Below, in pieces: positions 10,810-28,416 of a DNA stretch of 40,000 bases; the first letter of the stretch is position 1; every line of letters begins with the position of its first letter. Below the pieces are notes generated by a model. It had not been told where the DNA came from and made no database searches. It saw only the letters and a program-made list of their open reading frames with translations. The DNA comes from Candidatus Bathyarchaeia archaeon. GTDB taxonomy: Archaea > Thermoproteota > Bathyarchaeia > 40CM-2-53-6. Position numbers and translations under genes: made by a program. The stretch covers positions 1 through 40,000 of the forward strand of contig JBEKSC010000008.1 of the NCBI GenBank assembly GCA_049517415.1. Reading direction: 5' to 3'.

Positions 10810-10811
10810 GT

Positions 10812-12101: not shown

Positions 12102-12211
12102 GTCAGAGTAACTTCAGGCATTTCATTATTGAGTACTCGGCGCGAATACATCCTTCCATGTGCACTCACTTCATAAACCTAGCCGAATATAGTCCCAAGC
12201 GGTCTTACAGG

Positions 12212-12526: not shown

Positions 12527-12532
12527 CCTAGG

Positions 12533-14905
12533 TTAACTCATCCATTTCCTCGCAATAATCACGAATGACACGAGAATTGCTACTAGGACCACCATGGCGA
12601 CCACAAAAGTTTCTACGGGAAAGGTCAGGGCGTAAACAGCTGTTACGTTCCCTGGCATATTCATGACAACAGGGTCTGTCGCAACTCTACCATCCTCTCC
12701 CACCCAGTAAGTCAAAGTGTATTCTCCACCTAGGTAGCCTGATGTTCCCTCAGCAGGCACGCTCTCCGGGGCGCCAACTTTCACAGTTGCATTAGCATCG
12801 TACCACCCTCCTCCCACCGTAGGTCCGAAGCGCGAGTTTACGACGAGTAGATATTGAACCGTGTAATTCAGCATCTTCAGTGAATTCGCCGATACCGCAA
12901 AACCGCCATTCTCGATTTCGTACCGGGTGCCGGGTTCACCTTGAATCTGAGTATCCAATGAAACCGTGTGCGTTTCTCCTTTGAGGAAGTATAGGTCAAC
13001 CCAGGAACCGCCCGATGGCTCGAGATTATCCTTGCCGTCTACCTGAACGGGAACGTTGATTGAGCTTGGAATACCACTGGTTACCAGTGTCAACCGGAAG
13101 AACCCGGTAGCCGTGCGTGCATCTATTTTTCCGAAGCCCCAAACCGGGGAGCCGTCCGTAGACACGCCAGTGTCTGCGTCAAGTCGTGCGGTTTGTCTGA
13201 GTATTCCCGGGATATCGATTGCTTGTAAGCGTGAGTCGTACTGGAGCATTAGGGCAATTACGCCCGCTACGTGTGGAGTTGCCATGCTTGTTCCCGATAT
13301 GATTCTGTGGAACGCGTCAGGGTCACTTTCTTGTTCGTGGATTGCATTTGATCTGGCGGATGCTATGATGGTTCCTGGTGCCACGACATCCGGCTTGATC
13401 CTTCCGTCCCTCGTGGGGCCCCAAGAGCTGAATGATGCGATTCCCCCGGGCTCTATGTCAGTAGGGCCGTAGACTTGACCATTCATTCCCGTCCATGAAG
13501 TGTTCGTTACGTAAGCGCCCACCGTCACAACATCTCTCGCCGTACCCGGTATGCCCACCGTGTCGTGGCTGTCGATCTCGTATCCGTTCCCCGGAGTGAA
13601 GGAGGGGCCAGGATAGGCGCAGGTTACCGCATCCGTCCACGCGTCCCAAGAACCTTGAGACTGAATTTGATTTCCTTTCAGAGTTACGCTCCATCCATTA
13701 GCTGGCAGGTATTTAGTCGAGTTGACTTCAAGGTACAGTTCCTTACCGTTGTTCGAGGAACTTGTTGTGGTTGTTACGTTGCCGAAATTGCTTACAACTC
13801 CTCCAGGAATTGTTGGGACATGGTAAGTCTGCCCATCTGGTATTGTGAGCGTCGCGTCGATCTGATCCTGAGGTGAATACCAGACATCGATCTGTAGGTC
13901 AACTGTTGTTTGCCGAACCTGCAGCTGGAAAGTCACGTTACTTCCCTGTGAAAGTTTGCCTTGAATGTGGGCGTTGTCTCGTGCCTCATTTCCGGCGGCA
14001 ACGACGATCGGCGTTCCCGCCTCCACGATTGCGTCGAGGCCGAGTTCGAAGGGGTCAGTTCCATCGTGGGCCCCAATGTTTCCACCTAAGCTGAGGCTTA
14101 TCACGGCACGTTTTCCCAGCTTGGCCGCTTTTTTCACAATGTAACTCACGCCATCTAAAAGGTGAGTTGTATCGAAGTTCCAGCTAGTGCCGTTGCATAA
14201 GCTATACCCGCTCTTCACGAAGATTATGCTCGCCCCCGGAGCTACCCCTGTAAAGTTTCCAGTAGCCACCCCGGAACTTGCCGCTATTCCGGCTACGTGT
14301 GTTCCGTGGCCGTACGTATCGGTTTCAGGACAGTTCTTCGCTTGAATGTCAGCTGACGTGCACTCGTAGCCGTAGTCGAAACCAATGGGTGGGCGCCCGG
14401 GAGTTGTTTGGTCCCAGACGTAGAGAATTTTGGTGGTTCCATTGGGGAAGGTGAAATCAGGGTGCGTCGTATCAATTCCAGTATCGACGAACCCAATGAT
14501 TACTCCTGCACCAGTTATATTGTTGCCATTAGGATCCTTTACTTGATTCCATACTTGCGGCGCTCCGGTATCGGGTACGCCGCTCTCAAGGTCAATGCTG
14601 AGGGAATGTGAATTCTCAATTCGGGTGACAAATGGCAAATCCGCAATCTCGGGGAGGCTGGTTACTAGGGTGTGGAGTACAGCGATGGGGCCTGCGGTCG
14701 ACGTGACTGTGCCGTATGTATTCAGCAACTGAACCTCGCTAGGGACAAAATCGTGGTCACTCTCAACGAAGATCGAGATTTGGACAGTGGGATTCTGTAA
14801 TCCACGAATAACAAGAGTAGCGTGAGCTGTTTGAGTAGGAGGTACTGAACTGGAGAGAATCGTTAAGATTGCGAGTATGCACAGAGCTACGGATCCTTTC
14901 TTCAA
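12533..14905 (-). CDS. Secreted, membrane-anchored subtilisin-like serine protease (peptidase S8)
   Basis: It has a signal peptide (MKKGSVALCILAILTILSS). The catalytic residues lie in VGFVDTGID, GHGTHVAG and SGTSMATPHVAG. The C-terminal TM anchor reads FVVAMVVLVAILVSFVIIARK. Confidence 0.9.
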   Translation of the reverse strand: MKKGSVALCILAILTILSSSVPPTQTAHATLVIRGLQNPTVQISIFVESDHDFVPSEVQLLNTYGTVTSTAGPIAVLHTLVTSLPEIADLPFVTRIENSHSLSIDLESGVPDTGAPQVWNQVKDPNGNNITGAGVIIGFVDTGIDTTHPDFTFPNGTTKILYVWDQTTPGRPPIGFDYGYECTSADIQAKNCPETDTYGHGTHVAGIAASSGVATGNFTGVAPGASIIFVKSGYSLCNGTSWNFDTTHLLDGVSYIVKKAAKLGKRAVISLSLGGNIGAHDGTDPFELGLDAIVEAGTPIVVAAGNEARDNAHIQGKLSQGSNVTFQLQVRQTTVDLQIDVWYSPQDQIDATLTIPDGQTYHVPTIPGGVVSNFGNVTTTTSSSNNGKELYLEVNSTKYLPANGWSVTLKGNQIQSQGSWDAWTDAVTCAYPGPSFTPGNGYEIDSHDTVGIPGTARDVVTVGAYVTNTSWTGMNGQVYGPTDIEPGGIASFSSWGPTRDGRIKPDVVAPGTIIASARSNAIHEQESDPDAFHRIISGTSMATPHVAGVIALMLQYDSRLQAIDIPGILRQTARLDADTGVSTDGSPVWGFGKIDARTATGFFRLTLVTSGIPSSINVPVQVDGKDNLEPSGGSWVDLYFLKGETHTVSLDTQIQGEPGTRYEIENGGFAVSANSLKMLNYTVQYLLVVNSRFGPTVGGGWYDANATVKVGAPESVPAEGTSGYLGGEYTLTYWVGEDGRVATDPVVMNMPGNVTAVYALTFPVETFVVAMVVLVAILVSFVIIARKWMS

Positions 14906-14920
14906 AGGCGACTTTCCCCT

Positions 14921-15997
14921 CTAGCTGCGCCGCTTTTCCACTGTGGCTCTTCCTTTGCCCTCTCTGAGAAGACTCCTTGCTTTTCTCCTATAGTAAGACA
15001 ATGGATGTTTTATGGAGCCGCATAGTTCATCAGGATTGACGCAAAGGCCGTGGGTCCGCATAGTACTGCAGTTTGGTGCAGTGTATTGTCTTCTTGACCC
15101 GCGTTTACCTGCAATGTGTTCCACTTGATAACGCGCAATCCTTTCATCGAAATCAGTGAAAGACTTGAACATCTTAAGCAGGTCGTCTTCGTTCGTTCCG
15201 ATGTTCAGTAGGAAGGCAGCCATGGCGAATCTTCCCATGTGAGAGATGTGTTTACTCGTTTGGAGGAGACCGAGCAGATTCCTCATGCATGGTGGCATTG
15301 CGGATGACATTGCTGCTCGAGGCATTTCGTCGGCCGCTAAATATTGTGACCTAGCCTTTAGTGTAGAACGCAACGGTTCGACGCGCTTTTCCAATTCCGC
15401 GGGAAGTGCTACCGTTGTGTCAGCAGTTTTCTCGAGTACTCTAGATTGGACTTCCTCCTCCAGGAGTCTCGCGAAATCTTCACGCGGAAGCAGGACACAG
15501 CCTTCAGCGAGGACCCTATTGACCAATTTCCATCTAAGGTCGTGAATCCGGGCTGAATTACTCACATAGAATGTGAAGTAAAGAGCGAATTCAAAGTGAG
15601 TGTCGCCAACATCTCGATCTGCAAGCTTCGCGTCCCACGCGAACGTGCCAGTTGCTATCTGCAAGAGCTTCTCTGGGCTTTCGTCTCTCAGCAGCTGGTA
15701 GGCTCGCTTTGACTCAGCGAGAGCGTATCGGCGCCGTGTTCTGTCGTCGCCGATGGAGCTGATCAACATCAGCGCCGTGGGGTAAGCGAGGATGTCTACA
15801 TCTTCTTGGGTCAGGTCAGCCGAGATTCTCCCGGTAAAGACGCCTTGCCTGATTCGTTCTATAGCGCGGTCGAGTATGGGAATTAGTTCAGGCCTGACAA
15901 GTTCTAGGGGATCAATGTTTCTTGACTTTATGTAGCTCGAAGCTTCTGCCGTGAACGGGAATTTTGCCAAGTCCAACTTGGTAAGAAGCGCCTGCAT
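14921..15997 (-). CDS. priL: DNA primase large subunit PriL
   Basis: It has a helical N-terminal domain. The C-terminal Fe-S cysteines lie in PPCMRNLL and APNCSTMRTHGLCVNPDELC. It sits in the replication cluster. Confidence 0.8.
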   Translation of the reverse strand: MQALLTKLDLAKFPFTAEASSYIKSRNIDPLELVRPELIPILDRAIERIRQGVFTGRISADLTQEDVDILAYPTALMLISSIGDDRTRRRYALAESKRAYQLLRDESPEKLLQIATGTFAWDAKLADRDVGDTHFEFALYFTFYVSNSARIHDLRWKLVNRVLAEGCVLLPREDFARLLEEEVQSRVLEKTADTTVALPAELEKRVEPLRSTLKARSQYLAADEMPRAAMSSAMPPCMRNLLGLLQTSKHISHMGRFAMAAFLLNIGTNEDDLLKMFKSFTDFDERIARYQVEHIAGKRGSRRQYTAPNCSTMRTHGLCVNPDELCGSIKHPLSYYRRKARSLLREGKGRATVEKRRS

Positions 15998-16061
15998 GCT
16001 AACCGCCTCTAAATAGTTCGGCAGAGGCGAGGGTGGTTATGCCGTCTTGGCGTTAATAGTT

Positions 16062-16814
16062 CTACTCCGCCTCAATTCTCGGGGCCAGGAAATAGAGTAA
16101 CTTCCCTTGTTGAGGCATTTCGTACTCTAGTTTCACGGGCATGTTAGATGAGAATTCCAGTGTTACAAGCTCCGCAGCCATCGAGCCGGCCTTGGATATT
16201 TCCGCTAAATAGTTCAGGTTGAACGTGGCCTTGCATGGTTCCTTGACTTCAAGCTCCAGCAAAACGTCGCTGCCCTTCTCTAACTCAATCTTTGCTCCAC
16301 TGAGTTCCGTAACTGCTTCCGCGGTGAACTTCTCTGGGGTAGTCTCGAACCTCACGTTATCGCTGACTGTTTGAATTTGATCAATTATATCTTTGAAGCT
16401 TGAGCTGATCATTTTAATTTTCGTGTTGAAAGAAATTTTCGGCGTCGGCACCTCTTCATCTCCGGGATCGAGCGTGGGGAGAGTGAACGTAGTCTTCCAT
16501 TTTCCTTTGATGACCATGCTGAGCTTTCGAGTATTTTCATCGTATGACATTTCGAGAGGTTCTTGCCCAGCGCCGCGTAGCTTCTTGACAATGTCGGCTA
16601 CATTCAGGCGAATCTTCGTTGGTTGAGGGCAGGTGTATTCTTCAAATGCTGATTTGTTCCATTCAAAGTCAACCATAGCCACATGGGACGGGTCCATCGA
16701 TCTTAGTTTGATGCCTTCAGGGGCGGCGTTGAAGTCGGCTTCCTCAATGAGTGTAGATATCGCCGCGAGAAGGTTCCTCCAAAGCCTCGCATCACCGATA
16801 GTAGCTTTGAACAT
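16062..16814 (-). CDS. pcn: DNA polymerase sliding clamp (PCNA)
   Basis: MFKATIGDARLWRNLLAAISTLIEEADFNAAPEGIKLRSMDPSHVAMVDF is PCNA-like. The length is 250 aa. Confidence 0.9.
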   Translation of the reverse strand: MFKATIGDARLWRNLLAAISTLIEEADFNAAPEGIKLRSMDPSHVAMVDFEWNKSAFEEYTCPQPTKIRLNVADIVKKLRGAGQEPLEMSYDENTRKLSMVIKGKWKTTFTLPTLDPGDEEVPTPKISFNTKIKMISSSFKDIIDQIQTVSDNVRFETTPEKFTAEAVTELSGAKIELEKGSDVLLELEVKEPCKATFNLNYLAEISKAGSMAAELVTLEFSSNMPVKLEYEMPQQGKLLYFLAPRIEAE

Positions 16815-16898
16815 TCATCAATCACCGGATATCAGGGGGTGTCTTAGAGAGAGAACCTTACGCATTTTAATTGAGCGGTGCGAGTCGCGACGTGGACC

Positions 16899-17222
16899 CT
16901 AGGAATTTTCACGCCAAGTTGCCCCACAACTTGTGCACCGGAAGAACTGTGTTGAGGATTCATCTGCTCCGCGCGTTTGCACAAGCCAATAGAACGCCTC
17001 TTTGTGTCCACACTTGGGGCAATCAACTTTCGTCTTCGGTAGTGTACGAATTTTCTGTTCTTCTTTACCGATGACGACCACATTCTCTTTTTGTTGCTCC
17101 AACTTTTGCACCGTGCGGTCTGACCGCTTCGTCTCGTAGCCACATTTCGGGCAACTCAAGACGACGGATTTCTGTTTCTTTGTAGGCAGAAGAGCTAAAC
17201 CGCACTTTGGACAAAACTGCAC
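16899..17222 (-). CDS. tfs: Transcription factor S (TFS/RpoM)
   Basis: The N-terminal Zn ribbon reads FCPKCG...CPKCG. The C-terminal ribbon reads CPKCGHKEAFYWLVQTRGADESSTQFFRCTSCGATWRE. Confidence 0.9.
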   Translation of the reverse strand: MQFCPKCGLALLPTKKQKSVVLSCPKCGYETKRSDRTVQKLEQQKENVVVIGKEEQKIRTLPKTKVDCPKCGHKEAFYWLVQTRGADESSTQFFRCTSCGATWRENS

Positions 17223-17642
17223 TTTGTTCGCCTTTTTGATTGGCCTTAAGGTCCTTTAGGGGCTCTAGGGGTTGTTAATTTGGGTTACTTATCCGCCCGC
17301 CCTTAGCCTAGGGTTTAGGGTTGCGAAAACTAACCAAACCGTGCTAGCTGCCTGGAGCGGGAGCATCTAAGTATTGGCGGAGTTGGGGAGGTTCAACGTG
17401 TAAACCTTTTCGTAATTGGAGACTGCAGTTGCAAAGAGGCCTTACAATACGCTGCATTATCGTAATCATGCTCTAGGTAGCATGGTCTTCTTCTTCGACT
17501 TTCACGAACACGATTGGCCAGTAAAATGCCTCGTAAAGTATGAATCCTAATTTCCGGCTCTCACGCCTGATCTTTGGTGACGCGGATGGGTACGAATCGC
17601 TACCTCCAGAAAAGCCCACTACTTTTTCCAGCAAATAACTCG

Positions 17643-17757
17643 ACTATTAGAGCCTTTCAGGTCACGGTTCAATTTGCGTTGCCCGCACCAGTAGACTCTC
17701 ACACACGTTTTTCAACGACGAACGATCATGTTCGGAATCGGTGGGTGTTATCGCTCC
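17643..17757 (+). repeat. Island repeat, copy A
   Basis: The copy contains ACGGTTCAATTTGCG, then CGCACCAGTAGACTCTCACACAC, then GTTTTTCAACGACGAACGA. It is colinear with copies B, C and D. Confidence 0.7.
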
Positions 17758-17782
17758 TTTCTTATCGCATCGTGAAGCGAAT

Positions 17783-18727
17783 CTACTTAGCACGTTTTGG
17801 CATCCAGAATAGGTAGTACATGAGGTAGAATGCCGCGATTCCGCTGAAAGGAGAGAATTTGCTTAGAAGTCGTCGAACTTCATTTGAGCCAATTCGCTTG
17901 CCTTTGAAATACGCTTGTGAGATTGCGCGTTGAATTCCTAGGTCGTCAGCAGGCAATGAATTCACCCTTCCCATGCCCCGAATCAACGTATATTCCGCAG
18001 TCCAAGGACCAACGCCCCTAATCTTGGTTAGCTCTGCAATCGCCGTCTCATCATCCATCCTCCTTAGACCTTCAAGGTCTAACTCCTTGCCTTCAACTTT
18101 CTTGGAAAGTTCACTTATGTACAATGCCTTATTCCTACTGAGCCCAACAGCCATCATTTGGTTCAGCTTTGCTTTCGCTAAAACCGCGGGAGTTGGAAAG
18201 GCATAGAAGCTTCTTCCCTCGAACTCCACACTCTCTCCATACTTCTCAATCAGGCGAGAGCGTACCGCTGCTGCAGCCTCGAGTGAAATCTGCTGCTCGG
18301 TAATGGCGATTACCAAGGCTTCAAAAATAGTCGGCGGTGAAACAGCTCTCAGCCCTCTGAGCTTCCATGAAACAATACTCATCAATCGGTCTTTCTTAAC
18401 AAACGAATAGAACTTGTCAAAATCAAACGAAGCTGCAAACATCGTATGCAGTAGTCTCTTCAATGCTTTAACTTCCTGAGCCAACAAACCTGGGTGAGCT
18501 TCCACGCTAAGACGTGGTTTTTCGATGGTTCCCTTGGATGTAACTAGGACAAGGACTGGATTCTCAGCAAGGTGAAGAACTCTTTTGTAAACACCGTTTT
18601 CATATACGTCTGGAAGGCTTTTCTCAAACCGACAGTGAATCCCCGCGCTTCTTTCAAAGTCGAATGGGGATTCGGGAAAAATGAAGAAACCTGTTTTGGA
18701 ACCAGTGATTCTGAGGGTCTTATCCAT
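17783..18727 (-). CDS. HhH-GPD superfamily DNA glycosylase (AlkA/Ogg-like)
   Basis: LTKIRGVGPWTAEYTLIRGMGRVNSLPADDLGIQRAI contains the HhH-GPD motif with the catalytic Asp. ALVIAITEQQISL is also present, and the N-terminal domain is AlkA_N-like. Confidence 0.8.
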   Translation of the reverse strand: MDKTLRITGSKTGFFIFPESPFDFERSAGIHCRFEKSLPDVYENGVYKRVLHLAENPVLVLVTSKGTIEKPRLSVEAHPGLLAQEVKALKRLLHTMFAASFDFDKFYSFVKKDRLMSIVSWKLRGLRAVSPPTIFEALVIAITEQQISLEAAAAVRSRLIEKYGESVEFEGRSFYAFPTPAVLAKAKLNQMMAVGLSRNKALYISELSKKVEGKELDLEGLRRMDDETAIAELTKIRGVGPWTAEYTLIRGMGRVNSLPADDLGIQRAISQAYFKGKRIGSNEVRRLLSKFSPFSGIAAFYLMYYLFWMPKRAK

Positions 18728-18779
18728 GAGTTGCTCGTAGCACGCTGAGAGAGTTACATGTTAAGTATTTGTGGATCTT

Positions 18780-18897
18780 GGCCACTTTAGTCGCACACAC
18801 TTCCTAGCGATTACGGTTCAAATTTGCCTGCTCGCACCAGCTGACCCACACACACTTTCTATGACGAACGACGACGGCGGCCTTTTGGGGTCTTTCC
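18780..18897 (+). repeat. Island repeat, copy B
   Basis: The copy contains GCACACACTTCCTAGCGA, TTACGGTTCAAATTTGCCTGCTC, CGCACCAGCTGACCCACACACAC and TTTCTATGACGAACGACGACGG. That is two tandem sub-units with a period of about 55 nt. Confidence 0.7.
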
Positions 18898-19872
18898 GAG
18901 GATCTTACAAAGTTCGACGAAACTGCTTATGGCCAATGGAATACCCACTCCGAGGTAAAGCGAAGAGAAGAATATAGATTGGTCACGTTGTGTAACTAAA
19001 TTCGTAATCTGAAAATCAACTAACACAAAACTACCAGAGGCGTAAAGTGGGCTCGCTCTACTAATATCCCACTGGTACCACAGATTTCCTCCAGAGGCGA
19101 AAATGTTGTCTTCAGTCGGCGATGATTCAATTATGGCACCAGCAGGTTGCGCCACGTCCAGAACGTAACTCTCGCTGTCAAATTGGTTGAGAGGAGTTAC
19201 AGGACCAGGTACTATGTTCTAGATTGCAGGGCCGTAGTCGAACCGGTTGGTCAACTCGTATGTGGAGTAGGAATTCCGCAAGAGTGGCGTTTTAATGATA
19301 ATTGTCGCATTGAACCAAAAGAAATCATAAGACGTGTTATGATTTATCATACGATTTGCGCGAACCCAGAAATATGATAAGCCTGTTGCTTTGTCGAATC
19401 CCGGAGAGTAAGTAAAGTTAGGATTAGGATATCTGCTACTCATGCTTGTACCGAAAGAGCTCATTGGAGTCAGCGTCTTTTGCATGCTGAAAGATACATC
19501 CCAATCCAGTATTGTCGCAGAAGAATTGTATGGAATCTCAGCTCCGAACACTATCTGGCTCGAGTTGAACTGCGTTTTGAAGGAGCACGATATGGAAAGA
19601 ACTGCAGCGTTGAGATCTGGCCTTATCCCGTAGACCATAACTGCAACTCTTGTTGAGGTGATTCCGTAATTCCCGGCCAGAGTTGGATAATGTGAGGCGA
19701 AAATAGCTAACCCGTAAGATGAGGATGCAGGCGCATTACTAGGGAAGTTGAAAACGTTCTGTAGGCCCGTGGATCCACAGAAAGCAAGTACGATACCACT
19801 AAAGAGAAAAATGAGCAGGAGATAAGGCACTCTCCGGTTGACGACTCTTCCGAAGCTATCTATGCTAACCAT
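18859..19872 (-). pseudogene. Surface/membrane protein gene interrupted by one in-frame TAG (19219-19221)
   Basis: ORFs 19219..19872 and 18859..19155 are in the same frame. Read-through gives ...DYGPAI*NIVPGPVTPLNQFDSESYVLDVAQPAGA... The product has an N-terminal signal anchor (LLLIFLFSGIVLAFC) and a C-terminal TM plus basic tail (KGRRRRSS). No domain was recognised. Confidence 0.5.
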
Positions 19873-20029
19873 CTAACCGAGACCCTGTTATTAGACCTGA
19901 ATAGTCCCTATAGCCACTAATGAATCGACCAGTGTCAATAACGTACGATTTAGGCTTACACGCCTACAATCATCCCCCAGCAGGAACTGCAATCGCCAAG
20001 CTAATTCAGCATGAACCGGGGGGGAATCT

Positions 20030-20130
20030 CAGCGTACACATGGAAACCCTTACGTGGACTTGTGGGTCTAGTGGTGCGCGCGCACACACTTTCCAACGAC
20101 AAACGACGACGGGTCGAATTTTGCTGCTCT
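20030..20130 (+). repeat. Island repeat, copy C (core-1 segment inverted)
   Basis: TGTGGGTCTAGTGGTGCGC is the reverse complement of core-1 in copies A, B and D. It is followed in direct orientation by GCGCACACACTTTCCAACGACAAACGACGACGGGTCGAATTTTGCTGCTC. Confidence 0.7.
20061..20087. repeat. Left inverted repeat bracketing the cas1 module
   Basis: TGTGGGTCTAGTGGTGCGCGCGCACAC matches the reverse complement of 22868-22894 at 24 of 27 positions without gaps. Confidence 0.7.
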
Positions 20131-20181
20131 TACCGAAGTTTTTTATGGATTCATTACGCACCTTTAGCTGGGTTTGATGTA

Positions 20182-20448
20182 ATGAACATGAAGTTGATGG
20201 TTCTTGTTTCTGTTGTTGCTGGTTTGGTGATTACGCTGATCACCGGGTTGGTTGATGTGACGCCTATGCACCTGGTGGGTGCAACTTGGCATGGTTGGCC
20301 GCTCCCTTGGTTCTATGTAATTGTCTACCCAGGCTCACCGATCTCGGTTAATTGGCTCAACTTAATCGGTGATATCATCGTCTGGTTTGTCATAGTCCTC
20401 GCAGTTGCCTTAGTGATTTCGAAATTCAAGAAGACGTCCAAAACTTAG
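20182..20448 (+). CDS. Small membrane protein, at least two predicted TM segments (88 aa)
   Basis: The protein reads MNMKLMVLVSVVAGLVITLITGL...WHGWPLPWFYVIV...IIVWFVIVLAVALVISKFKK. The start is placed at ATG 20182 because the upstream part of the ORF crosses repeat C. Confidence 0.5.
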   Translation: MNMKLMVLVSVVAGLVITLITGLVDVTPMHLVGATWHGWPLPWFYVIVYPGSPISVNWLNLIGDIIVWFVIVLAVALVISKFKKTSKT

Positions 20449-20549
20449 GATGCATTCGAGGTAACGATCGGAATCCGCTGAGCCCATGGCACAATTCGTC
20501 CCGAGAAGGGTGAGGCTCAGAGAGGGGGGCAGGGGATTCTGACCCCAAT

Positions 20550-20741
20550 TTAGCGGTACACATAGCCTTGCAGTGAAGCAACGGAACAATGCGAGTTCAA
20601 ATTCCGATGCTCGTACCAGAAGGCGGCCCCTCCATCTGAGGTCAGGTCGCCCACTAAAGCCACAACATCCGGTCGAATTCTATCTACCCGTTCTTCGTAT
20701 CCTTCCCATTTCACAACATCAGAGAAGGCAAGTATCTTCAT
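20550..20741 (-). CDS. Short ORF resembling the N-terminus of a metallophosphoesterase (probable remnant)
   Basis: MKILAFSDVVKWEGYEERVDRIRPDVVALVGDLTSDG resembles the MKILxxSDxH...PDxVxxxGDL motifs but lacks the His and ends after 63 aa. ATG 20741 lies 6 nt downstream of the cas1 stop codon (20750-20752). The TTG 20759 version overlaps cas1. Confidence 0.35.
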   Translation of the reverse strand: MKILAFSDVVKWEGYEERVDRIRPDVVALVGDLTSDGGAAFWYEHRNLNSHCSVASLQGYVYR

Positions 20742-20749
20742 CGAGCCCA

Positions 20750-21964
20750 CTAGGTCCAACCGCCAAGCTTCGTCATGACGGGTTTGTAGATGGTGAATTG
20801 GTCTTTACAGGCGTTCTTGCGCAAATATTGAAGGGTGCTCTTTCCAATCCCAAGGCGTCTTGCCTTGGAGCCGGTCAGTGCAAGAATCCTAGCTCGCACT
20901 TCTCGGTCATCACTCCTCTGCAGCCTCGGAGCGGGTTCTGCAAAATCAAGCGTGAGTGATTTCTCGAGTAGAAATCGGCCCAGCTCGTTGGTCTTCTGCT
21001 CAATAACAGTATCCCATTTCAGAACTCGGTGTTTGCATGCTACGCCAGCGTTGAATCGCTCACGAATGAGATCGATGAAGCGCTGCTTCGCTTCAACCTC
21101 GAAACGGTATCGGTAATCGTCCCCTGTGAAGTAGAAGTCGGATAGGTTCAAGGCTTCAGACTGGAATGCCGCGATGACCGAAATGTCAGATAGCCACCTG
21201 AACGGCTCCTGTAAATCATACACTAAAGACTGCTTTGTCTGATAGTCGCTGACATCATGAAAGAAACCGACCGAGGGTTCCAGGCCGACCGCGTTTATTG
21301 CTCGTCGACATTCACCCTCTAGGAAACCATAACCGTAGTTTAGGGCCAAGTTCACGGGATCTGAGGCGTTGTTCTGGTGGCTTGAAGTCATTCGCTCTTG
21401 GAAATCCAAGTGCTCGGGCATCACTTTCCCGAATGCTTCCCAGTATCTCCTAGCTACACGTCCTTCGACAGTTCGTAGGTCTGGCACTGTGGAGGCTCTT
21501 CTGAGCTTTGATGCCTCAAGCTTCGTTACTTGAATCTCCCTAGGAATATCATACCGCTCGGCCAACCAATCAAGAACTTGCAGACTCCTCTCAATTTTCG
21601 CTTGAACGAGCGCTCTGGCTATGCTGAACTTCTTCTTCGGATCGTTCGCAGCTAGAATTTGTGCAGCCCGCAGATCGGCCTTAACAGGCATTGGAGGCAG
21701 AACACTAGAAATCAGACTTCCATCGAAGTTCATGATGAAGACAGGAACCTTATGCTTCGACAGCCAGTGAAACGCTTGGAGAGAAATGTACCCACTGTGC
21801 CCATCGATGATGATGGTGCCGTAAGGGAAACGTCGCGGACGAAAACGGTGCGTAGATTCTGCTCTGTCATCTTCTCGCCAGTTGATGACCTCAAGTTCAG
21901 ATCTTGACTTGAGACTGTTAACGCGGATCTTGGCGCCCCAACCGGATAGATGAAGCGGATTCAA
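20750..21964 (-). CDS. cas1: Cas1 family integrase, stand-alone, casposase-like with a C-terminal HTH
   Basis: The Cas1 motifs are RTVEGRVARRYWEAF (Glu), ASDPVNLALNYGYGFL, VGFFHDV (His) and SLVYDLQEPFRW (Asp/Glu). The C-terminal HTH reads ARRLGIGKSTLQYLRKNA. Length is 404 aa. Confidence 0.85.
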   Translation of the reverse strand: MNPLHLSGWGAKIRVNSLKSRSELEVINWREDDRAESTHRFRPRRFPYGTIIIDGHSGYISLQAFHWLSKHKVPVFIMNFDGSLISSVLPPMPVKADLRAAQILAANDPKKKFSIARALVQAKIERSLQVLDWLAERYDIPREIQVTKLEASKLRRASTVPDLRTVEGRVARRYWEAFGKVMPEHLDFQERMTSSHQNNASDPVNLALNYGYGFLEGECRRAINAVGLEPSVGFFHDVSDYQTKQSLVYDLQEPFRWLSDISVIAAFQSEALNLSDFYFTGDDYRYRFEVEAKQRFIDLIRERFNAGVACKHRVLKWDTVIEQKTNELGRFLLEKSLTLDFAEPAPRLQRSDDREVRARILALTGSKARRLGIGKSTLQYLRKNACKDQFTIYKPVMTKLGGWT

Positions 21965-21966
21965 AC

Positions 21967-22413
21967 CTAATGCCCTCCCTGTCTACTTTCATATTCCTTG
22001 AGCTTCTGGTCGGCCAACTTGCCTGCTTCCTTCAATCGTTGTATCTCTCTTTCAGTAGGCCTTGATCTCGTCTTTGTGTTTGCACGGGCCACTATTGATT
22101 GCCAGCGTTCGTTGAGATATCCTACAGCGAAGCTTTCGCCTACAGGACTTGTAAGGAATTCAACGAATTTATCGGGATCGACTGCGAATGCCAACACTAT
22201 TAATCCGTAGTTGCTGAAGCAAGATTTCCAACCTTTTTTCAACTGTTCAGCATCGAGCCAGTTCCTTTTCGCTGAGAACATACTCTCAGCGAGGAAAGCC
22301 GTATACCGGGTTGAGGACCAGTGGGTCAATGCATACTTTAGGTACAGCGACCTTTCGTTAACCATTGTCAATCTAGAGTACGGTCTCATTGCAGTTGACT
22401 CAGGAGTCCTCAT
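21967..22413 (-). CDS. Hypothetical protein (148 aa) immediately upstream of cas1
   Basis: The ORF ends 2 nt before the cas1 start, which is an operon-like arrangement. I recognised no motif. It is not Cas2-like or Cas4-like. Alternative starts lie at M9 and M17. Confidence 0.5.
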   Translation of the reverse strand: MRTPESTAMRPYSRLTMVNERSLYLKYALTHWSSTRYTAFLAESMFSAKRNWLDAEQLKKGWKSCFSNYGLIVLAFAVDPDKFVEFLTSPVGESFAVGYLNERWQSIVARANTKTRSRPTEREIQRLKEAGKLADQKLKEYESRQGGH

Positions 22414-22744
22414 GCTATCACATGGCGATCCAATATCTTCGATGCTGAATAGCGCGTTCTTGCATCGAGTAATGAACTATCTCGCTGACTGGTCACCGTT
22501 CAAAACAAACAGTTATCCAAACGATGGTCTGAAACTGTACTCCGAGACAGGGAAAATGCTTAACGCCATTTTTGTGAGAGTTGCGGATGGCAAGACCTGG
22601 CACATTGCCTTTCATCTCAAGCCGGAAACGTCAACCGACGCGATCAAACCTGACATGGTCAAGCTACTCTCAATGCTAGCATCTTTAGGTTTGGTGAAGA
22701 ACCCTGTTGTGAGAGAACGAGTGGGTAAGAAACCTTGGATATGA
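22412..22744 (+). CDS. Hypothetical protein (110 aa)
   Basis: The first ATG of the ORF gives MLSHGDPISSMLNSAFLHRVMNYLADW... The composition is protein-like. The longer TTG 22211 version overlaps the 148-aa gene. No motif was recognised. Confidence 0.45.
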   Translation: MLSHGDPISSMLNSAFLHRVMNYLADWSPFKTNSYPNDGLKLYSETGKMLNAIFVRVADGKTWHIAFHLKPETSTDAIKPDMVKLLSMLASLGLVKNPVVRERVGKKPWI

Positions 22745-22844
22745 TATTAGTGATAGACAGACTGAACAAGTGTGAGAGACCGTTCTCCGAACGAGAATGA
22801 ACCATCTCCAATTTTCTCCTCGACACACAAAGCGACGCTGCCAG

Positions 22845-22950
22845 AATTAGATTCGGTCGTCCGTCTAGTGTGTGTGCGCACCATTAGACCCACACCCTTT
22901 CTAACGACGCTGGTCCAAATTACGACTCTCGCAAGCACTAGGTCCACAAT
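22845..22950 (+). repeat. Island repeat, copy D (imperfect palindrome plus direct unit)
   Basis: The sequence reads AATTAGATTCGGTCGTCCCGTCTAGTGTGTGTGCGC | GCGCACCATTAGACCCACACCCTTTCTAACGACGCTGGTCCAAATT. The left arm is an inverted partial unit. A second core-1-like GCAAGCACTAGGTCCACA lies 55 nt further on. Confidence 0.7.
22868..22894. repeat. Right inverted repeat bracketing the cas1 module
   Basis: The reverse complement is TGTGGGTCTAATGGTGCGCACACACAC. It matches 20061-20087 at 24 of 27 positions. Confidence 0.7.
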
Positions 22951-23168: not shown

Positions 23169-24071
23169 GTGCAGAATTTCTTGGAAAATCTAACCTTTCA
23201 CACCTCAAAGATTGATAATTTCTCAGGCTTTTCAAAACCATTAGACGAGGCGCGCTACGTGGTGGTAGGTGTCCCATACGATCACACAAGTACATATCGA
23301 GCGGGGTCACGTTTCGCCCCACGAACAATTCGCGATGCATCATTGAACATTGAGACCTATAGCCTCCGAACGGCAATCGACATCGAAAACGTTCCAATAC
23401 ACGATGCAGGAGACCTGCATATAGTCGATAATGCTTCTGAAACACTCGACAGGCTAAAAGGGGTTACAAAGGACATTCTAGCCCTTGGGAAGATGCCAGT
23501 CATCATCGGCGGAGAGCACACAATCACTCAAGCTCCAGTCCGTAGCCTTCCGCACCCTGTCGGGGTTGTTAGTTTTGATGCCCACGGCGACCTGAGGGAT
23601 GAATATGGTGGCGGAAAATTATCCCACGCCACAGTCTTGAGGCGCATTACCGAGATTGTTGGGACGGATAGCGTTTTCGTATGCGGTCTGCGAGCCCTAT
23701 GCAAAGAAGAGGTAGATTTTATTGAACTAGGGAAAGTCCAGACGATGACGCCATGGGAAATTAGGGAGAAAGGCTTAGCCAAGGCGACGGAACGCATCAA
23801 AGCCTTTGCTCAAAAGTTCAAACACACATACCTTACCATAGATACTGATGTCTTAGACCCAGCCTTTGCACCCGGGGTCGCAAACCCTGAATTCGATGGC
23901 TTAACGCCTCAGGAACTCCTGACACTAGCCACCGCTGTGGTTGACGAAAAAATGGTCGGCTTCGACCTCGTGGAGGTATGTCCAAACTATGATACCGGCG
24001 TCACTTCCGTAGCTGCCGCCCGTCTTATCTTCGAAGTTATCGCCAAAGCAGAGAAATCGAGACAGCACTAA
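23169..24071 (+). CDS. speB: Agmatinase (arginase/ureohydrolase family)
   Basis: GGEHTIT, DAHGDLRDEY, SHATVLRR and DTDVLDPAFAPGV are the Mn-binding motifs. The start codon is GTG. Confidence 0.85.
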   Translation: MQNFLENLTFHTSKIDNFSGFSKPLDEARYVVVGVPYDHTSTYRAGSRFAPRTIRDASLNIETYSLRTAIDIENVPIHDAGDLHIVDNASETLDRLKGVTKDILALGKMPVIIGGEHTITQAPVRSLPHPVGVVSFDAHGDLRDEYGGGKLSHATVLRRITEIVGTDSVFVCGLRALCKEEVDFIELGKVQTMTPWEIREKGLAKATERIKAFAQKFKHTYLTIDTDVLDPAFAPGVANPEFDGLTPQELLTLATAVVDEKMVGFDLVEVCPNYDTGVTSVAAARLIFEVIAKAEKSRQH

Positions 24072-25384
24072 TCGATTCTTTGTAATTTCGCTATGAAGTA
24101 CCCATTGCATTCGTGTATGTGAGGGTAGAACCTCTGGCAGAGATCAAATCCCCTTAACCCAATGGAACCCAAGAACGGCACTTGCCGGACTACTTTGAAG
24201 TCTGGATTTTTCTTTAGAAATTCTTCGATTATACATTCATTCTCTTCTGGCAGGATGCTGCAAGTACAATAGGCGAGGGTTCCGTTAGGCTTGACGTAAT
24301 CCGATGCGTTCTGAATGATGGAGTATTGCCTCAATCCGTACTCACTTACGCGCGTGGGCGTGAGCTTCCATTTTCCGGCGGGGCTCCTTGCAAAAACTCC
24401 GCTGTTTGAGCATGGTGGGTCAACGATGACAACATCCGCGCTAGTCTTCAGGGGAAGCCTTCTCGCGTCAGCGCGGATGGGTCTTGCAATCTCGCATCCG
24501 CACCGCGCCATTTCCTTCTTCCAATACGCGAGTCTGCGGCCTGAAAGGTCGACCGAATAGATTTCGCCTCTATTCTGCATCTGGGCAGCTGCGTGGGTGG
24601 TTTTGTTCCCAGGTGCAGCGCATATGTCTATTACGATTTGCCCAGGCTTTGGGGAAGCGACGAGGCCGGCTGTAATGCTCGCCAAATCTTGCACAACTAC
24701 GTCACCTGATTTGATGATCCGGGACGGCTGACCTTTCATCCCCAAACGAAAGACGCCATCGACGCCTTCGACCTTCAAGCCTCCTAACTCTGCCGTCATT
24801 TCCGCTTGACTAACGGGCTTCAGTAAGTTTAGTCGGACGTAGGTAGGCATGGCATGCAAGTCCCGGCGCAGAATTCGGAGTGCAAAGCTTCTTCCAAAAA
24901 CATTCACTAGCCGTTCGACGAACCAAACAGGATGGCAGGTTTCCAGAGAAAGCCTTTCGAATTCAGGCAAGGGATCCTTGGTAACTTTTCTTCCCGCAAC
25001 GATTAGGGCGATTTGTTCCTCATGGATGCGGAGTTCCTTCCAACCTAAAATTTGCCGGGCCAATTCCACGTGACGTTCCAGATCGCTTTGGCGCGTCCCA
25101 TCAACATACTTGAGGTATGCGATAATTTTCAGGAAGCTCCTTATCCCGTGCGGAGTCCTCTCGATTTCATCCTTGGAGACTACTTGTGAAATCATATGGT
25201 CAATTCGGTTTTGGAAACGAGTTGTTTCCATGATGAGTCGGTACGCTTGGCGGAGTTCATTCGCTTCCTTTACGTCCATCTGGTCAGCGGCCTTGAATAG
25301 GGCGGTTCTCTCTCCGGTGCCTGCGTAAGCCATCCAGCTCAGGGCTTCAATGGCTACTGCGAGGGAATTCTTCATCAAGGCCAT
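24068..25384 (-). CDS. NOL1/NOP2/Sun-family RNA (cytosine-C5) methyltransferase
   Basis: DICAAPGNKTTH is the SAM-binding motif. DPPCSNSGV and YCTCSILPEENE carry the catalytic cysteines. The N-terminal domain is NusB-like. Confidence 0.85.
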   Translation of the reverse strand: MALMKNSLAVAIEALSWMAYAGTGERTALFKAADQMDVKEANELRQAYRLIMETTRFQNRIDHMISQVVSKDEIERTPHGIRSFLKIIAYLKYVDGTRQSDLERHVELARQILGWKELRIHEEQIALIVAGRKVTKDPLPEFERLSLETCHPVWFVERLVNVFGRSFALRILRRDLHAMPTYVRLNLLKPVSQAEMTAELGGLKVEGVDGVFRLGMKGQPSRIIKSGDVVVQDLASITAGLVASPKPGQIVIDICAAPGNKTTHAAAQMQNRGEIYSVDLSGRRLAYWKKEMARCGCEIARPIRADARRLPLKTSADVVIVDPPCSNSGVFARSPAGKWKLTPTRVSEYGLRQYSIIQNASDYVKPNGTLAYCTCSILPEENECIIEEFLKKNPDFKVVRQVPFLGSIGLRGFDLCQRFYPHIHECNGYFIAKLQRID

Positions 25385-25806: not shown

Positions 25807-28416
25807 ATGTCGAAAACACTTGAAAGCTACTTTACGGAAAAGCGCGAGGAGATCAAACTGGCCCCGAGGCCTCTGGTCAAGCGGCAGAGCCTAGTCTTCT
25901 ATCCGGCAATGCCAGCGTCAATCCCTCCATCATACTTGGTCTCCATAGGGTATGACGGGGATCTCAAGAAATGTTTTCTGCGTCTCTACGAACCTAAGTC
26001 GCATAAAATCTATTTTTGGTTTGACGACTCGGGTCACAAACCCTACTGTTACAGCAAGCAGTCGGTCGGGGAGCTTCAGAGAGTGGAGGCGGTAGCGAGG
26101 AACCCTGGGTTCGACCATTTCGAGGAGGAAACGAAGTTTGACGCGCTTCGGAGTGAGCAAGTTAAAGTGACGAAGATCGTCGCCAAAGACCCACTGACAA
26201 TCGGTGGAAAACCTACCGGTTCAATGCGCGACGCCATAACCGCATGGGAAGCTGACATAAAGTACGTCGAGAATTTCATCTATGACCGCGGGCTCGAACC
26301 TGGCATGATGTACGAGTTTAAAGACAAACAGTTGGCCGCGGTGAAATACGAACTACCGGAAGAAGCAGCGATGGAAATTGACAGTCTCTTCCGGGATGAA
26401 TCTCAAGAGTACCAAGGCCTAGCAAGAGAATGGATGCGGCTCCTTGAGTGCCCCGTACCAGAGTACAGGAGGGCGGCCGTAGACATTGAAGTTTTTCAGG
26501 CCGTAGAGTCACGTATTCCCGATCCAGAATTATCGGAACATCCAGTAATTTGTGCAAGCCTAGTCGGATCCGATGGTGCCAAACGCGTACTCCTCTTACG
26601 ACGAGAAGGGACTCCTGAGGGTCAGGCTTCGTTACCAACTGGCGTCGAATCGGAATTCTATGACACCGAGGAAGAATTGTTAATCGCTCTATTCCAAGCT
26701 TTCCTGGATTATCCGATAGTAGTCACATTCAACGGTGACGATTTTGACCTGAAATACCTCTACCACCGCGCTCAAAGGTTGGGTTTTAGAAATGAAGAAA
26801 TTCCAATCGAGTTAGGCCGCGATGTCGCCTTTCTCAAGTATGGTGTCCATGTAGACCTCTACAAGTTCTTCTTCAACAGGTCTATCCAAATTTACGCGTT
26901 CGGCCAGAAGTACCGGGAGAACACGCTGGACGCTGTCGGCGCGGCGCTAATCGGCACTCCAAAGGTCGAAATAGAATCAGTCTCGAAAGCATCCTACAGG
27001 CAATTGGCCGCCTACTGCTATCGTGACTCCGAAATTGTCCTCAACCTGACTTCTTTCAACGAAGATTTGGTCATGAAGTTGATGACGGCGATATCACGAA
27101 TCAGCTACATGACGCTGGACGATGTCTCAAGACAGGGAGTGTCGGGTTGGATTCGAAGCATACTGTTCTGTCACCACCGCAAACGAGGATACTTGATTCC
27201 TAGGAGAGACGAGATTCTGGAGGTCAAAGGCCAAACTGCTACGGAAGCTGTGATTAAGGGCAAGAAGTACAAGGGCGCAATAGTTGTTGAACCTAAACCA
27301 GGCGTCCATTTCAACGTCGCAGTCCTCGACTTTGCATCACTGTACCCTTCTATCATCAAGGTCTGGAACCTCGGCTACGAGACAGTTCGCTGTCCACACG
27401 TGGACGAGGCTTGCAGGAAGAACCTAATCCCAGGAACGCCCCACTGGGTCTGCAAAAAGAAGCGGGGACTTGAAAGCCTGCTGATTGGTTCGCTTAGGGA
27501 CCTGCGAGTTGGCAGGTACAAGGTCAAGTCGAAAGACCGTTCCTTACCACCGAACATGAAGAGTTGGTACAAAGTCGTATCCGATGCGCTGAAGGTGGTA
27601 CTAAATGCCTCCTACGGTGTCTTCGGTGCGGATAATTTTGCGTTGTATTGTCCGCCTGTCGCCGAGGCCACTGCCGCAATAGGCAGGCACGTTATAACTC
27701 AAGCATTGCAGAAAGCGCAGGAACTTAATTTGGAAGTCTTCTACGGTGACACGGATTCCATATTTCTTCAAGGCCAGGATAAAGTCTCGCTTAACAAGCT
27801 CATCGAATGGTCTACCAGCCAGCTCAGGATGGAGTTGGAAATCGACAAGAACTATCGTTACCTTGCCCTTAGTTCAAGGAAGAAGAACTACTTCGGCGTC
27901 CTGCCCGATGGAAGCGTAGACATCAAGGGATTGACAGGGAAAAAGCGGCATATTCCAGAGTTCTTGCACGGCGCCTTTTACGAAATGGTTTCGGCCCTGG
28001 CCGAAGTCAAATCGCCGGAAGACATCGACATTGCGAAAGCGAAAACAATTGATATCGTGAAACGCAGTTACGTGAGACTGCGGAACAGGGAATACACGCT
28101 CCAGGAACTAGCCTTTTCAATGATGATGAGCAGAACCCCGGAAAATTACACAAAAACGACCCCGCAGCACGTGAAAGCGGCCAAGCAATTACAAGAAGCC
28201 GGCGCAGAAATGAAACCAGGCGATATTATATCCTTTGTCAAGGTACGGGGCGAGCCCGGAGTTAAGCCTGTGCAACTTGCTAGGCTAGAAGACGTAGACA
28301 CTGAGAAATACATCGAATATATCCGGGGCACATTCGAGCAGGTACTTGACGCTTTAGGAGTCGAATTCGAAGATTTGGCTGGCGTAAAGAAACTGGAATC
28401 CTTCTTCAATGGGTAA
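25807..28416 (+). CDS. polB: Family B DNA polymerase (cellular replicative type)
   Basis: Exonuclease motifs are AAVDIEV and FNGDDFDLKYL. Polymerase motifs are DFASLYPSII, KVVLNASYGVFG and YGDTDS. Length is 869 aa and I saw no intein. Confidence 0.9.
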   Translation: MSKTLESYFTEKREEIKLAPRPLVKRQSLVFYPAMPASIPPSYLVSIGYDGDLKKCFLRLYEPKSHKIYFWFDDSGHKPYCYSKQSVGELQRVEAVARNPGFDHFEEETKFDALRSEQVKVTKIVAKDPLTIGGKPTGSMRDAITAWEADIKYVENFIYDRGLEPGMMYEFKDKQLAAVKYELPEEAAMEIDSLFRDESQEYQGLAREWMRLLECPVPEYRRAAVDIEVFQAVESRIPDPELSEHPVICASLVGSDGAKRVLLLRREGTPEGQASLPTGVESEFYDTEEELLIALFQAFLDYPIVVTFNGDDFDLKYLYHRAQRLGFRNEEIPIELGRDVAFLKYGVHVDLYKFFFNRSIQIYAFGQKYRENTLDAVGAALIGTPKVEIESVSKASYRQLAAYCYRDSEIVLNLTSFNEDLVMKLMTAISRISYMTLDDVSRQGVSGWIRSILFCHHRKRGYLIPRRDEILEVKGQTATEAVIKGKKYKGAIVVEPKPGVHFNVAVLDFASLYPSIIKVWNLGYETVRCPHVDEACRKNLIPGTPHWVCKKKRGLESLLIGSLRDLRVGRYKVKSKDRSLPPNMKSWYKVVSDALKVVLNASYGVFGADNFALYCPPVAEATAAIGRHVITQALQKAQELNLEVFYGDTDSIFLQGQDKVSLNKLIEWSTSQLRMELEIDKNYRYLALSSRKKNYFGVLPDGSVDIKGLTGKKRHIPEFLHGAFYEMVSALAEVKSPEDIDIAKAKTIDIVKRSYVRLRNREYTLQELAFSMMMSRTPENYTKTTPQHVKAAKQLQEAGAEMKPGDIISFVKVRGEPGVKPVQLARLEDVDTEKYIEYIRGTFEQVLDALGVEFEDLAGVKKLESFFNG

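Follow-up and report, generated by a model that had tools for sequence, protein, structure and literature searches.

How does a cas1 gene come to stand between inverted repeats with no DNA polymerase to accompany it? The question is raised by a stretch of 40,000 nucleotides (nt) of a Candidatus Bathyarchaeia archaeon (assembly GCA_049517415.1, contig JBEKSC010000008.1, positions 1-40,000), hereafter the window. An earlier note, written from the letters alone, had drawn a 2.8-kb casposase-like cas1 module at 20061-22894, and had suggested a casposon derivative without polymerase. The answer that we regard as probable is that this cas1 encodes the casposase of a polymerase-less branch of casposons specific to Bathyarchaeia, and that positions 17655-22950 are a nested or tandem array in which the 2.8-kb segment is a rearranged derivative. 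The earlier suggestion holds in kind, as this is a casposase from a family with inverted repeats and 14-bp duplications, and without family B polymerase (PolB); it does not hold as to the boundaries, or as to the reading of the segment as a single element.

The first point concerns the protein itself.

20750-21964, minus strand: cas1 casposase gene, Cas1 family, 404 amino acids (aa), C-terminal helix-turn-helix (HTH), catalytic residues E167/H236/D250/E253 intact.

The Pfam family Cas_Cas1 matches this protein at E 1e-51, and its best solved relative by far is the casposase of Methanosarcina mazei (PDB 6opm; E 4e-69, 236 bits), in an alignment that covers residues 36-403 and includes the C-terminal HTH (340-403). 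The best Cas1 from CRISPR systems among the solved structures reaches E 4.5e-21. The clade is abundant: with E <= 0.001 as the limit, 950 homologues were obtained, of which the 120 listed are 67-100% identical to the window Cas1, ∼400 aa long, and come mainly from peat, soil, and wetland metagenomes, those with a name being Candidatus Bathyarchaeia. An alignment of 29 Cas1 relatives shows no variation at Glu167, His236, Asp250, and Glu253.

Where does such a protein fall in the Cas1 family? A neighbour-joining tree was computed from 66 casposases translated from the fetched loci, together with 6opm and four CRISPR Cas1 fragments from the PDB; this is a simple distance method, and distances were undefined for some very distant pairs. 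The Bathyarchaeia-specific clade is recovered in 100/100 bootstrap replicates, its union with the more distant Bathyarchaeota sequences L048 and L049 in 91/100, and the split between casposases and the four CRISPR outgroups again in 91/100. Membership of a CRISPR clade, which the earlier note had named among the things to check, is not what the tree gives: the protein groups with casposases. One might still think of an ordinary CRISPR adaptation Cas1, with its array and partners elsewhere in the genome, considering that the database name is "CRISPR-associated endonuclease Cas1" and that the NCBIfam model TIGR00287 is matched. However, the protein sits in the casposase clade and has a C-terminal HTH of the family-2 type, the subtype-specific NCBIfam Cas1 models all remain far under their own cut-offs, the 40-kb window holds no tandem repeat array, and the cas1 neighbourhoods read contain no cas2, cas4, or effector genes; the chance that this is a CRISPR Cas1 is practically negligible. 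Judged from its sequence, the protein is best described as a catalytically intact casposase, in a clade inside the casposase radiation. The casposase activity, the end recognition, and the target rule of the Bathyarchaeia clade described below are putative.

The next question is what surrounds this gene in other genomes. A scan with one genome per species returned 78 loci. Those from Bathyarchaeia encode Cas1 proteins at 54-78% identity, and the next tier, at 31-39%, is that of the organisms in which family-2 casposons are classically found, namely Methanosarcinales, Methanomassiliicoccales, Thermoplasmata, and DPANN archaea. The cas1 neighbourhoods differ among genomes, with no fixed chromosomal position, and a single metagenome-assembled genome, MFD03726.bin.2.69, has at least eight full-length or truncated cas1 copies.

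The arm motif of the earlier note recurs around cas1 in the related Bathyarchaeia loci, where it belongs to junctions of two types. The T-type junction is made of a T-loop-like motif, GGTTCAAAT, followed by nine bases, a 14-mer, and a run of a simple repeat. In most cases CGCACCA opens the 14-mer, at times replaced by CTCACCA or CCCACCA, and seven variable bases complete it; the repeat is as a rule (CA)n, and occasionally (CCG)n or (CGA)n. Over 62 of these junctions the consensus reads gacgGTTCAAATtccG.tGCcCGCACCA.t....cCacacacaca. The spacing between the T-loop-like motif and the A that precedes CCA is exactly that of a tRNA: five bases of T-stem, seven of acceptor stem, and the discriminator. 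The G-type junction presents the complementary run, (TG)n or its equivalents, and then the 14-mer.

The pairing of the two types delimits the elements. In L014, L035, L036, L038, L039, L041, L044, L046, and L047, cas1 lies between one T-type and one G-type junction that share a strand, are 5-11 kb apart, and carry identical 14-mers; L043 has the same arrangement with one mismatch, and L022 has an identical pair around 8.3 kb that lacks cas1. In these 11 delimited loci cas1 is therefore present in 10, and the 14-mer is identical in 10 and one base off in L043. By a scripted count, an identical partner in cis exists for 9/64 T-junctions, versus 15/6624 (0.23%) of the pairs in trans. In the 14-bp duplication, the last four bases of the tRNA are followed by CCA and by seven further bases. 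Locus L041 displays the whole anatomy: a real tRNA-Pro gene (8070-8148) ends with ...GGCCCCACCA, the 14-mer CCCACCACGATTTC has copies at 8142 and 17170 (14/14), and the 9014 bp between them are bounded by a perfect 65-bp inverted repeat beginning with (CA)6GTTTCTAATTG. Another element, L043, is located at a tRNA-Lys gene. Terminal inverted repeats score 40/40 in L041, where they extend to 65 bp, 25/40 in L038, and high in L035 when gaps are allowed. Because identical T/G pairs enclose the elements, and given the anatomy of L041, the 14-mer is to be read as the target-site duplication and the simple-repeat runs as the termini. As a control, the same script found GGGATATAGG repeats at the family-2 loci, and perfect CGCA-initiated 14-bp duplications after the tRNA end, as published (PMC6977970, PMC4779613).

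With this anatomy in hand, the repeats of the window can be listed anew.

17655-17725, plus strand: junction U1, with tRNA 3'-end mimic GGTTCAATT (17666-17674), 14-mer CGCACCAGTAGACT (17684-17697), and terminus CTCACACAC + GTTTTTCAACGACGAACG.
18805-18880, plus strand: junction U2, with tRNA 3'-end mimic GGTTCAAATT, 14-mer CGCACCAGCTGACC (18833-18846), and terminus (CA)4 C + TTTCTATGACGAACGACGACGG.
20061-20087, plus strand: left arm, with TGTG, 14-mer GGTCTAGTGGTGCG at 20065-20078 (reverse complement of CGCACCACTAGACC), and CGCG(CA)n, the start of the element terminus.
20079-20140, plus strand: left-end module, with CGCG(CA)3C, a spacer of the AACGACGACG type, degenerate T-loop mimic GGGTCGAATTT, and a degenerate 14-mer.
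20103-20622, plus strand: cassette S1, which holds an 88-aa membrane-protein gene (20185-20448, plus strand).
20587-20625, plus strand: junction U3, with T-loop mimic GAGTTCAAATT and degenerate 14-mer CGTACCAGAAGGCG (20612-20625); boundary between S1 and the cas1 unit.
22845-22876, plus strand: right terminus of the cas1 segment, GGTCGTCCGTCTAG and then (TG)4.
22868-22894, plus strand: right arm, with (GT)4 G, 14-mer CGCACCATTAGACC at 22877-22890, and CACA; a G-type junction.
Outer arm end, the boundary drawn by the earlier note: reads ...GACCCACA-3'.
22891-22945, plus strand: solo left-end module, with CACA, CCCTTTCTAACGACGCTG, T-loop mimic GTCCAAATT (22913-22921), and degenerate 14-mer CGCAAGCACTAGGTCC.

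The inverted repeat itself is beyond doubt. Its two arms of 27 nt, at 20061-20087 and 22868-22894, with 2780 nt between them, match as reverse complements at 24/27 positions (89%), just where they had been reported; the 19-nt core, TGTGGGTCTARTGGTGCGC, has two sites only in the window versus 0.02 expected from shuffles. The weaker inverted similarity reported further inward is also real (left CGCGCACACACTTTCCAACGACAAACGACGACGGGTCGAAT, right CACACACACTAGACGGACGACCGAATC). What changes is the place of the ends. The left arm is a G-type junction read from the other strand, the termini in the window are (CA)n...(TG)n with an imperfect AACGACGAC motif, and by the family pattern they lie inside the arms, at 20079/20083 and at 22876, and not at 20061 and 22894 as proposed. 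The left-end module 20079-20140 has the layout of the end modules of L039, L033, L045, L014, and L032. The solo module at 22891-22945 is a direct repeat of the one at 20083-20131, and would represent the left end of a further, otherwise missing element.

All six junction units of the window fall within 5.3 kb around cas1 (17655-22950), and none in the other 34.7 kb. This distribution bears on the idea that the motif is a common intergenic repeat unrelated to cas1, whose bracketing of the gene is coincidental. It is indeed multicopy, and it also lies beside genes without a link to cas1 (HhH-GPD, a 217-aa gene). Against the idea stands, besides this confinement, that matching 14-mer pairs enclose cas1 in the relatives, and that the motif reproduces the target logic of family 2, with a tRNA 3' end and a duplication that begins at the last four tRNA bases (PMC6977970). 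Coincidence is therefore a very improbable explanation. The units were also considered as tRNA genes, a candidate that was rejected: their T-stem is not complementary, and ARAGORN and Rfam report no tRNA at the window units, at most related units, or elsewhere in the 40-kb window. They are mimics or fragments, with L041 and L043 as the exceptions.

Is the 2.8 kb then a discrete minimal casposon as first drawn, with 27-nt repeats ending at 20061 and 22894, that moves as a unit and whose outer duplication has decayed? The inverted repeat is far above chance, the casposase is intact, and in L039 inverted arms with the same 14-mer, GGTCTAGTGGTGCG, at 382 and 7690, lie around a longer set of cassettes that includes cas1. 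However, eleven relatives have the 14-mer as the duplicated target, with simple repeats inside it as the termini, and L039 has the same 14-mer also as a perfect direct pair (9073/388) around a larger element of 8.7 kb. Furthermore, the left 0.5 kb of the segment forms a cassette apart, which has U3 as a junction of its own, and no direct repeat exists beyond the arms (6/14), so that the caveat of the earlier note about the lack of a clean target duplication was justified. Taken together, these points make the minimal casposon unlikely. Other duplications, either a short one just outside the arms (the shared CCCTT) or the 14-mer shifted by a few bases, were tried and gave no consistent pattern.

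The 14-mers of the two arms are inverted with respect to each other (reverse complement, 13/14), and the 2.8 kb is therefore not the product of one simple insertion. The segment is also composite: cassette S1 is 89% identical to L039 1642-2158, which lies there on the other side of the cas1 unit, with a junction between. Because of this swap of S1, a truncated cargo open reading frame (ORF), an upstream gene without its HTH part, and the inverted 14-mers, the window copy appears to be reduced and rearranged. Segment 20079-22876 has proper termini and an intact casposase gene, yet on these grounds it would be a rearranged, truncated derivative.

Inverted 14-mers, with one mismatch at most and 1.4-7.3 kb apart, are also seen in L039 (388/7684/9073), L031 (14192/17653), and L052 (11502/13616), as well as in L045 (14851/18741, 3.9 kb) and L055 (13089/14557, 1.5 kb). 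Since five other loci have them, the arrangement of the window is recurrent and no one-locus accident. Three candidate explanations can be offered: the 14-mer may flip between its (TG)n and (CA)n neighbours where junctions stand in tandem, copies in opposite orientation may recombine and thereby cause an inversion, or transposition may be intramolecular, in which case the inversion products carry inverted target duplications.

The small ORFs of the segment are those listed in the earlier note, except that the metallophosphoesterase-like stub measures 66-69 aa here.

20550-20759, minus strand: 66-69 aa ORF; a weak likeness to the beginning of a metallophosphoesterase in the first ∼45 residues; the remainder runs into U3.
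21967-22413, minus strand: 148-aa ORF, directly upstream of cas1.
22412-22744, plus strand: 110-aa ORF, function unassigned by homology; three relatives found, the most distant 51% identical.

The first is probably a truncated cargo gene, its likeness to the N-terminus of Pfam Metallophos being E 0.045, below the Pfam cut-off. As for the other two, whose homologues beside other solo cas1 genes had been proposed as a check, the 148-aa protein matches the C-terminal part of the gene that relatives have at the same position upstream of cas1 (a 249-aa protein in L044, E 9e-12); both are near-orphans, the former even among 5.8 billion proteins. The relatives' counterparts are often winged HTH proteins, one of them with HTH and HEAT repeats, and the 148-aa ORF is without the HTH part. 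Gene callers disagree on this region: NCBI reports a 177-aa ORF at 22211-22744 (plus strand) that overlaps the 148-aa ORF, while the others report 140 or 148 aa on the minus strand and 110 aa on the plus strand. Homology supports the 148-aa reading of 21967-22413. To the left of the segment, between the 217-aa gene and the left arm, 60 nt (19945-20004) are 92% identical to L031 7074-7133, which lies 3 kb upstream of cas1 in another genome; because of this match, the left flank itself seems to hold repeated or mobile sequence. Further left, the island adjoins replication genes (window 10222-16814: PCNA, primase large and small subunits, GINS), identified by their Pfam names in the public contigs that match there.

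How would such elements move? The casposase would join simple-repeat ends, mostly 5'-(CA)n...(TG)n-3', to a site set by the T-loop-like GGTTCAAAT, and comparison of the delimited loci shows that the 14-bp stretch nine bases past this motif is what becomes duplicated on insertion. Because many elements carry a target mimic near their own end, as their anatomy suggests, new insertions could land inside or beside older ones and build nested or tandem arrays. Without PolB, movement presumably consists of cutting and joining by the casposase, with host enzymes filling the 14-nt gaps. The two arms of the earlier note would be two junctions of such an array, in each of which a 14-mer adjoins a (CA)n terminus.

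The absence of PolB was assessed with a profile built from seven casposon PolB proteins of the family-2 tier. It matches beside cas1 in most family-2 loci and in L048, while none of the loci in the Bathyarchaeia clade gives a match over the 10 kb to each side of cas1. L048 has a casposon-PolB fragment at its contig edge, and there CTCACCAGCTAAGG and then GGGGATATAGAT follow a T-loop mimic. In L044, positions 12743-12775 read GGGGATATAGATAAC, a classic family-2 terminal repeat placed directly after the right 14-bp duplication of a PolB-less element; there, the polymerase-less and the classic casposon kinds appear to share one target. The window also has a PolB of 869 aa (25807-28416, plus strand), 3 kb from the element and following an arginase/agmatinase and an RsmB-type methyltransferase gene (23169-24071, 24068-25384). 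It was considered as part of a larger casposon and rejected: it has the full exonuclease and polymerase domains of a chromosomal enzyme and constant RsmB/arginase synteny in all contigs, the casposon-PolB profile does not match it, and no repeat units occur past 22950. Used as a query, it finds chromosomal copies only.

What do the elements carry, if not a polymerase? The ten delimited cas1-bearing elements, 5-11 kb in size when intact, have 102 ORFs of at least 80 aa, the longest of 615 aa. Cas1 is present in 10/10, HNH_3 in 1/10, and no polymerase is found among the top 25 of the 52 Pfam families listed for these ORFs. In most elements a fast-evolving gene lies directly upstream of cas1, usually overlapping it; several of these genes encode a winged HTH, and that of L034, with HTH and HEAT repeats, is of the "HTH-h" type known from family 2. 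Six of the ten share a three-gene module, namely a P-loop ATPase of 230-300 aa and two small proteins without family match. The similarity of the ATPase to TniB is weak (E 1.8e-5), and a PDB profile search gave nothing significant.

Three-gene module: L014 7034-8751; L035 3057-4460; L036 7334-9001; L041 12499-14091; L043 12642-14282; L044 7389-8935.
Defence-type cargo: L035 7333-8910; L036 2928-6859; L044 4063-5910; L047 11217-11981; L041 8590-9744.

The cargo is variable and often defence-like, with ThsB-like TIR, SIR2, DitA, GmrSD, HEPN, Schlafen/AlbA, OLD-type TOPRIM, DUF4365, and Fic proteins; an archaeal ATPase with HTH belongs to it too, and the DUF4365 protein is nuclease-like.

A cargo of this sort, rich in TIR, SIR2, GmrSD, HEPN, and DitA genes, invites another thought: has the casposase been domesticated, so that it has ceased to move its own element and instead captures or shuffles cassettes for the host at tRNA-like repeats, much as an integron does, many of these cassettes being of defence type? 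Direct arrays of tRNA mimics do separate cassettes of one to three genes, the order of the cassettes is unlike between the window and L039, the L022 unit has a perfect 14-bp pair without cas1, and Cas1 is 67-80% identical over many genomes. A domesticated enzyme is nonetheless difficult to reconcile with several copies per genome, truncated ones included, and with the lack of a fixed chromosomal position across genomes. In addition, cas1 lies inside the duplicated boundaries in 10/11 delimited units, and L041, with its perfect 65-bp repeats, looks like a recent self-insertion. Domestication is, on balance, quite improbable.

Public contigs add a view of the population. The identical Cas1 is found on 23 of them, and contig L007 spans the whole region at 100% identity to the window. 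Contigs that come from the arginase side end at ∼20340-20450, those from the PCNA/HhH-GPD side at ∼20335-20353; since the breaks (in k = 141 assemblies) occur from both sides, an exact repeat should exist at ∼20200-20480, with the region of the 88-aa gene in more than one context. This repeat of ∼280 bp covers the 88-aa membrane-protein gene, in peat metagenomes. A 627-kb Joint Genome Institute contig (L018/L022, Ga0427942_000006) equals window 13219-20480 exactly and then continues with ParA, a 5TM-LYT protein, and a 986-aa protein; at L022 2746-11040 the 14-mer of U2, CGCACCAGCTGACC, recurs (14/14) 8.3 kb away after a GT run (GTGTGTG), which delimits the unit without cas1. This arrangement may reflect a strain variant whose element has no cas1, or else a join made across the 280-bp repeat. 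Relatives were not found in the viral contigs of IMG/VR.

Several observations weigh against the reading that we prefer. The 14-mers that flank the window segment are inverted, unlike the products of simple casposase chemistry, and no 14-bp direct target duplication was found there: the best direct partner of the 14-mer at 22877 is that of U1, with 12/14 only, which is within the background similarity of such boxes. The segment yielded neither an empty site nor a presence/absence polymorphism; an exact look-up of the RsmB protein gave no match, probably owing to a single amino-acid difference from the public contigs, a right-flank 31-mer and an arginase-gene 32-mer had 0 exact matches in a metagenome contig collection that evidently does not contain this region, and look-ups with arginase and P0121 returned only contigs that already have cas1 or are broken at the repeat. 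Neither was a near-identical second cas1 unit found, hence recent movement of the window copy receives no support. As for PolB, its absence is defined by a 10-kb reach and by sequence profiles, and the polymerase may be provided in trans by another element; elements of the L048 type and the classic GGGATATAGAT end in L044 indicate that PolB-bearing casposons do occur in Bathyarchaeia.

A wider proposal can be formulated, which we hold only tentatively. The clade would be a natural, still mobile branch without polymerase and with its own tRNA-end mimic, whose nested arrays separate cassettes, many of them of defence type, and it would represent a living instance of the repeat-building intermediate without polymerase that has been postulated between casposons and CRISPR adaptation. 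The inverted 14-mers would then reflect an extra reaction, be it intramolecular transposition or end flipping.

Which parts of this picture are new? They are a PolB-less lineage of Bathyarchaeia related to family 2, its simple-repeat termini, a target that includes CCA, the self-carried mimics, a TniB-like module, and the defence cargo. If true, a casposase alone can sustain a transposon, a step required by the scenarios for the origin of CRISPR adaptation. Casposase insertions are suggested as a possible source of direct-repeat arrays, the clade marks a class of defence-gene islands in Bathyarchaeia, and the target rule, GGTTCAAAT-N9-[4 nt + CCA + 7 nt], along with the simple-repeat ends, is simple and open to test.

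The literature offers a reason why such elements escaped attention. The original casposon survey searched for the co-occurrence of cas1 and polB (PMC4046053), and because both genes were required, PolB-less relatives would have escaped it by design. Casposons are by definition self-synthesizing transposons, and reviews describe PolB as invariably present in casposons (PMC6452270, PMC9939771, PMC9966878). The statement of the earlier note that the known casposons encode PolB agrees with these reviews (PMC6452270, PMC9939771); a hot-spring "family 5", for the most part without PolB, had however been proposed in 2022 (PMC9755687). In the literature searched, no paper links casposases with Bathyarchaeia or speaks, in so many words, of casposons without PolB.

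How does the clade compare with the systems already described? With Tn7-like elements and integrons the likeness is an analogy only: site-specific insertion by a conserved gene end, islands that accumulate in tandem, a TniB/TnsC-like ATPase, and arrays of cassettes in which defence genes abound. Their recombinases are of the DDE or tyrosine type, whereas the clade uses Cas1, and the likeness of the ATPase is weak. Cas1-solo group 1 of Methanomicrobiales also has a stand-alone cas1 with no polymerase or CRISPR array nearby, but its catalytic set is incomplete and its inheritance apparently vertical (PMC4046053), while in the clade none of the catalytic residues varies and the gene occurs in multiple copies in bounded elements.

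The mini-casposon of M. mazei, which consists of repeats, duplications, and cargo, integrated in vivo with proteins from the resident element (PMC10359463). It demonstrates that a unit can be moved even if it encodes no PolB or cas1 itself, and it formed a tandem with the resident. Unlike the elements of the clade, it is artificial, and receives Cas1 and PolB in trans from the resident casposon. The hot-spring "family 5" of 2022, mostly without PolB and proposed to consist of non-self-replicating transposons (PMC9755687), shares with the clade the solo cas1, the intact catalytic residues, the variable hypothetical neighbours, and the general absence of PolB. It is set apart by its description: its authors present it as being without the C-terminal HTH and as branching outside families 1-4, close to subtype I-A Cas1, and they report neither target duplications nor target sites and do not mention Bathyarchaeia (PMC9755687), whereas the clade has the HTH and branches with family-2-like casposases.

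Among the closest known systems are also the family-2 casposons, represented by MetMaz-C1 of Methanosarcina mazei and AciBoo-C1 of Aciduliprofundum boonei. Shared traits are the C-terminal HTH of the casposase, the overlapping gene just upstream of cas1 that is often of HTH or HTH-HEAT type, the insertion at tRNA 3' ends with a 14-bp duplication from the last four tRNA bases, and the occurrence of tandem insertions and solo ends at a single site; in Methanosarcina, the CGCA rule has been documented, as have solo terminal repeats and casposons that stand in tandem with a shared duplication (PMC4779613). Unlike family 2, whose core set is PolB, HNH, and two HTH proteins, the clade has no PolB and no regular HNH, and only the upstream HTH-type gene is retained. 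Its termini are (CA)n, (CCG)n, or (CGA)n in place of GGGATATAGG, and its duplication includes an encoded CCA. Finally, its elements carry their own tRNA-end mimic, 6/10 of them have the TniB-like ATPase module, and their hosts are Bathyarchaeia.

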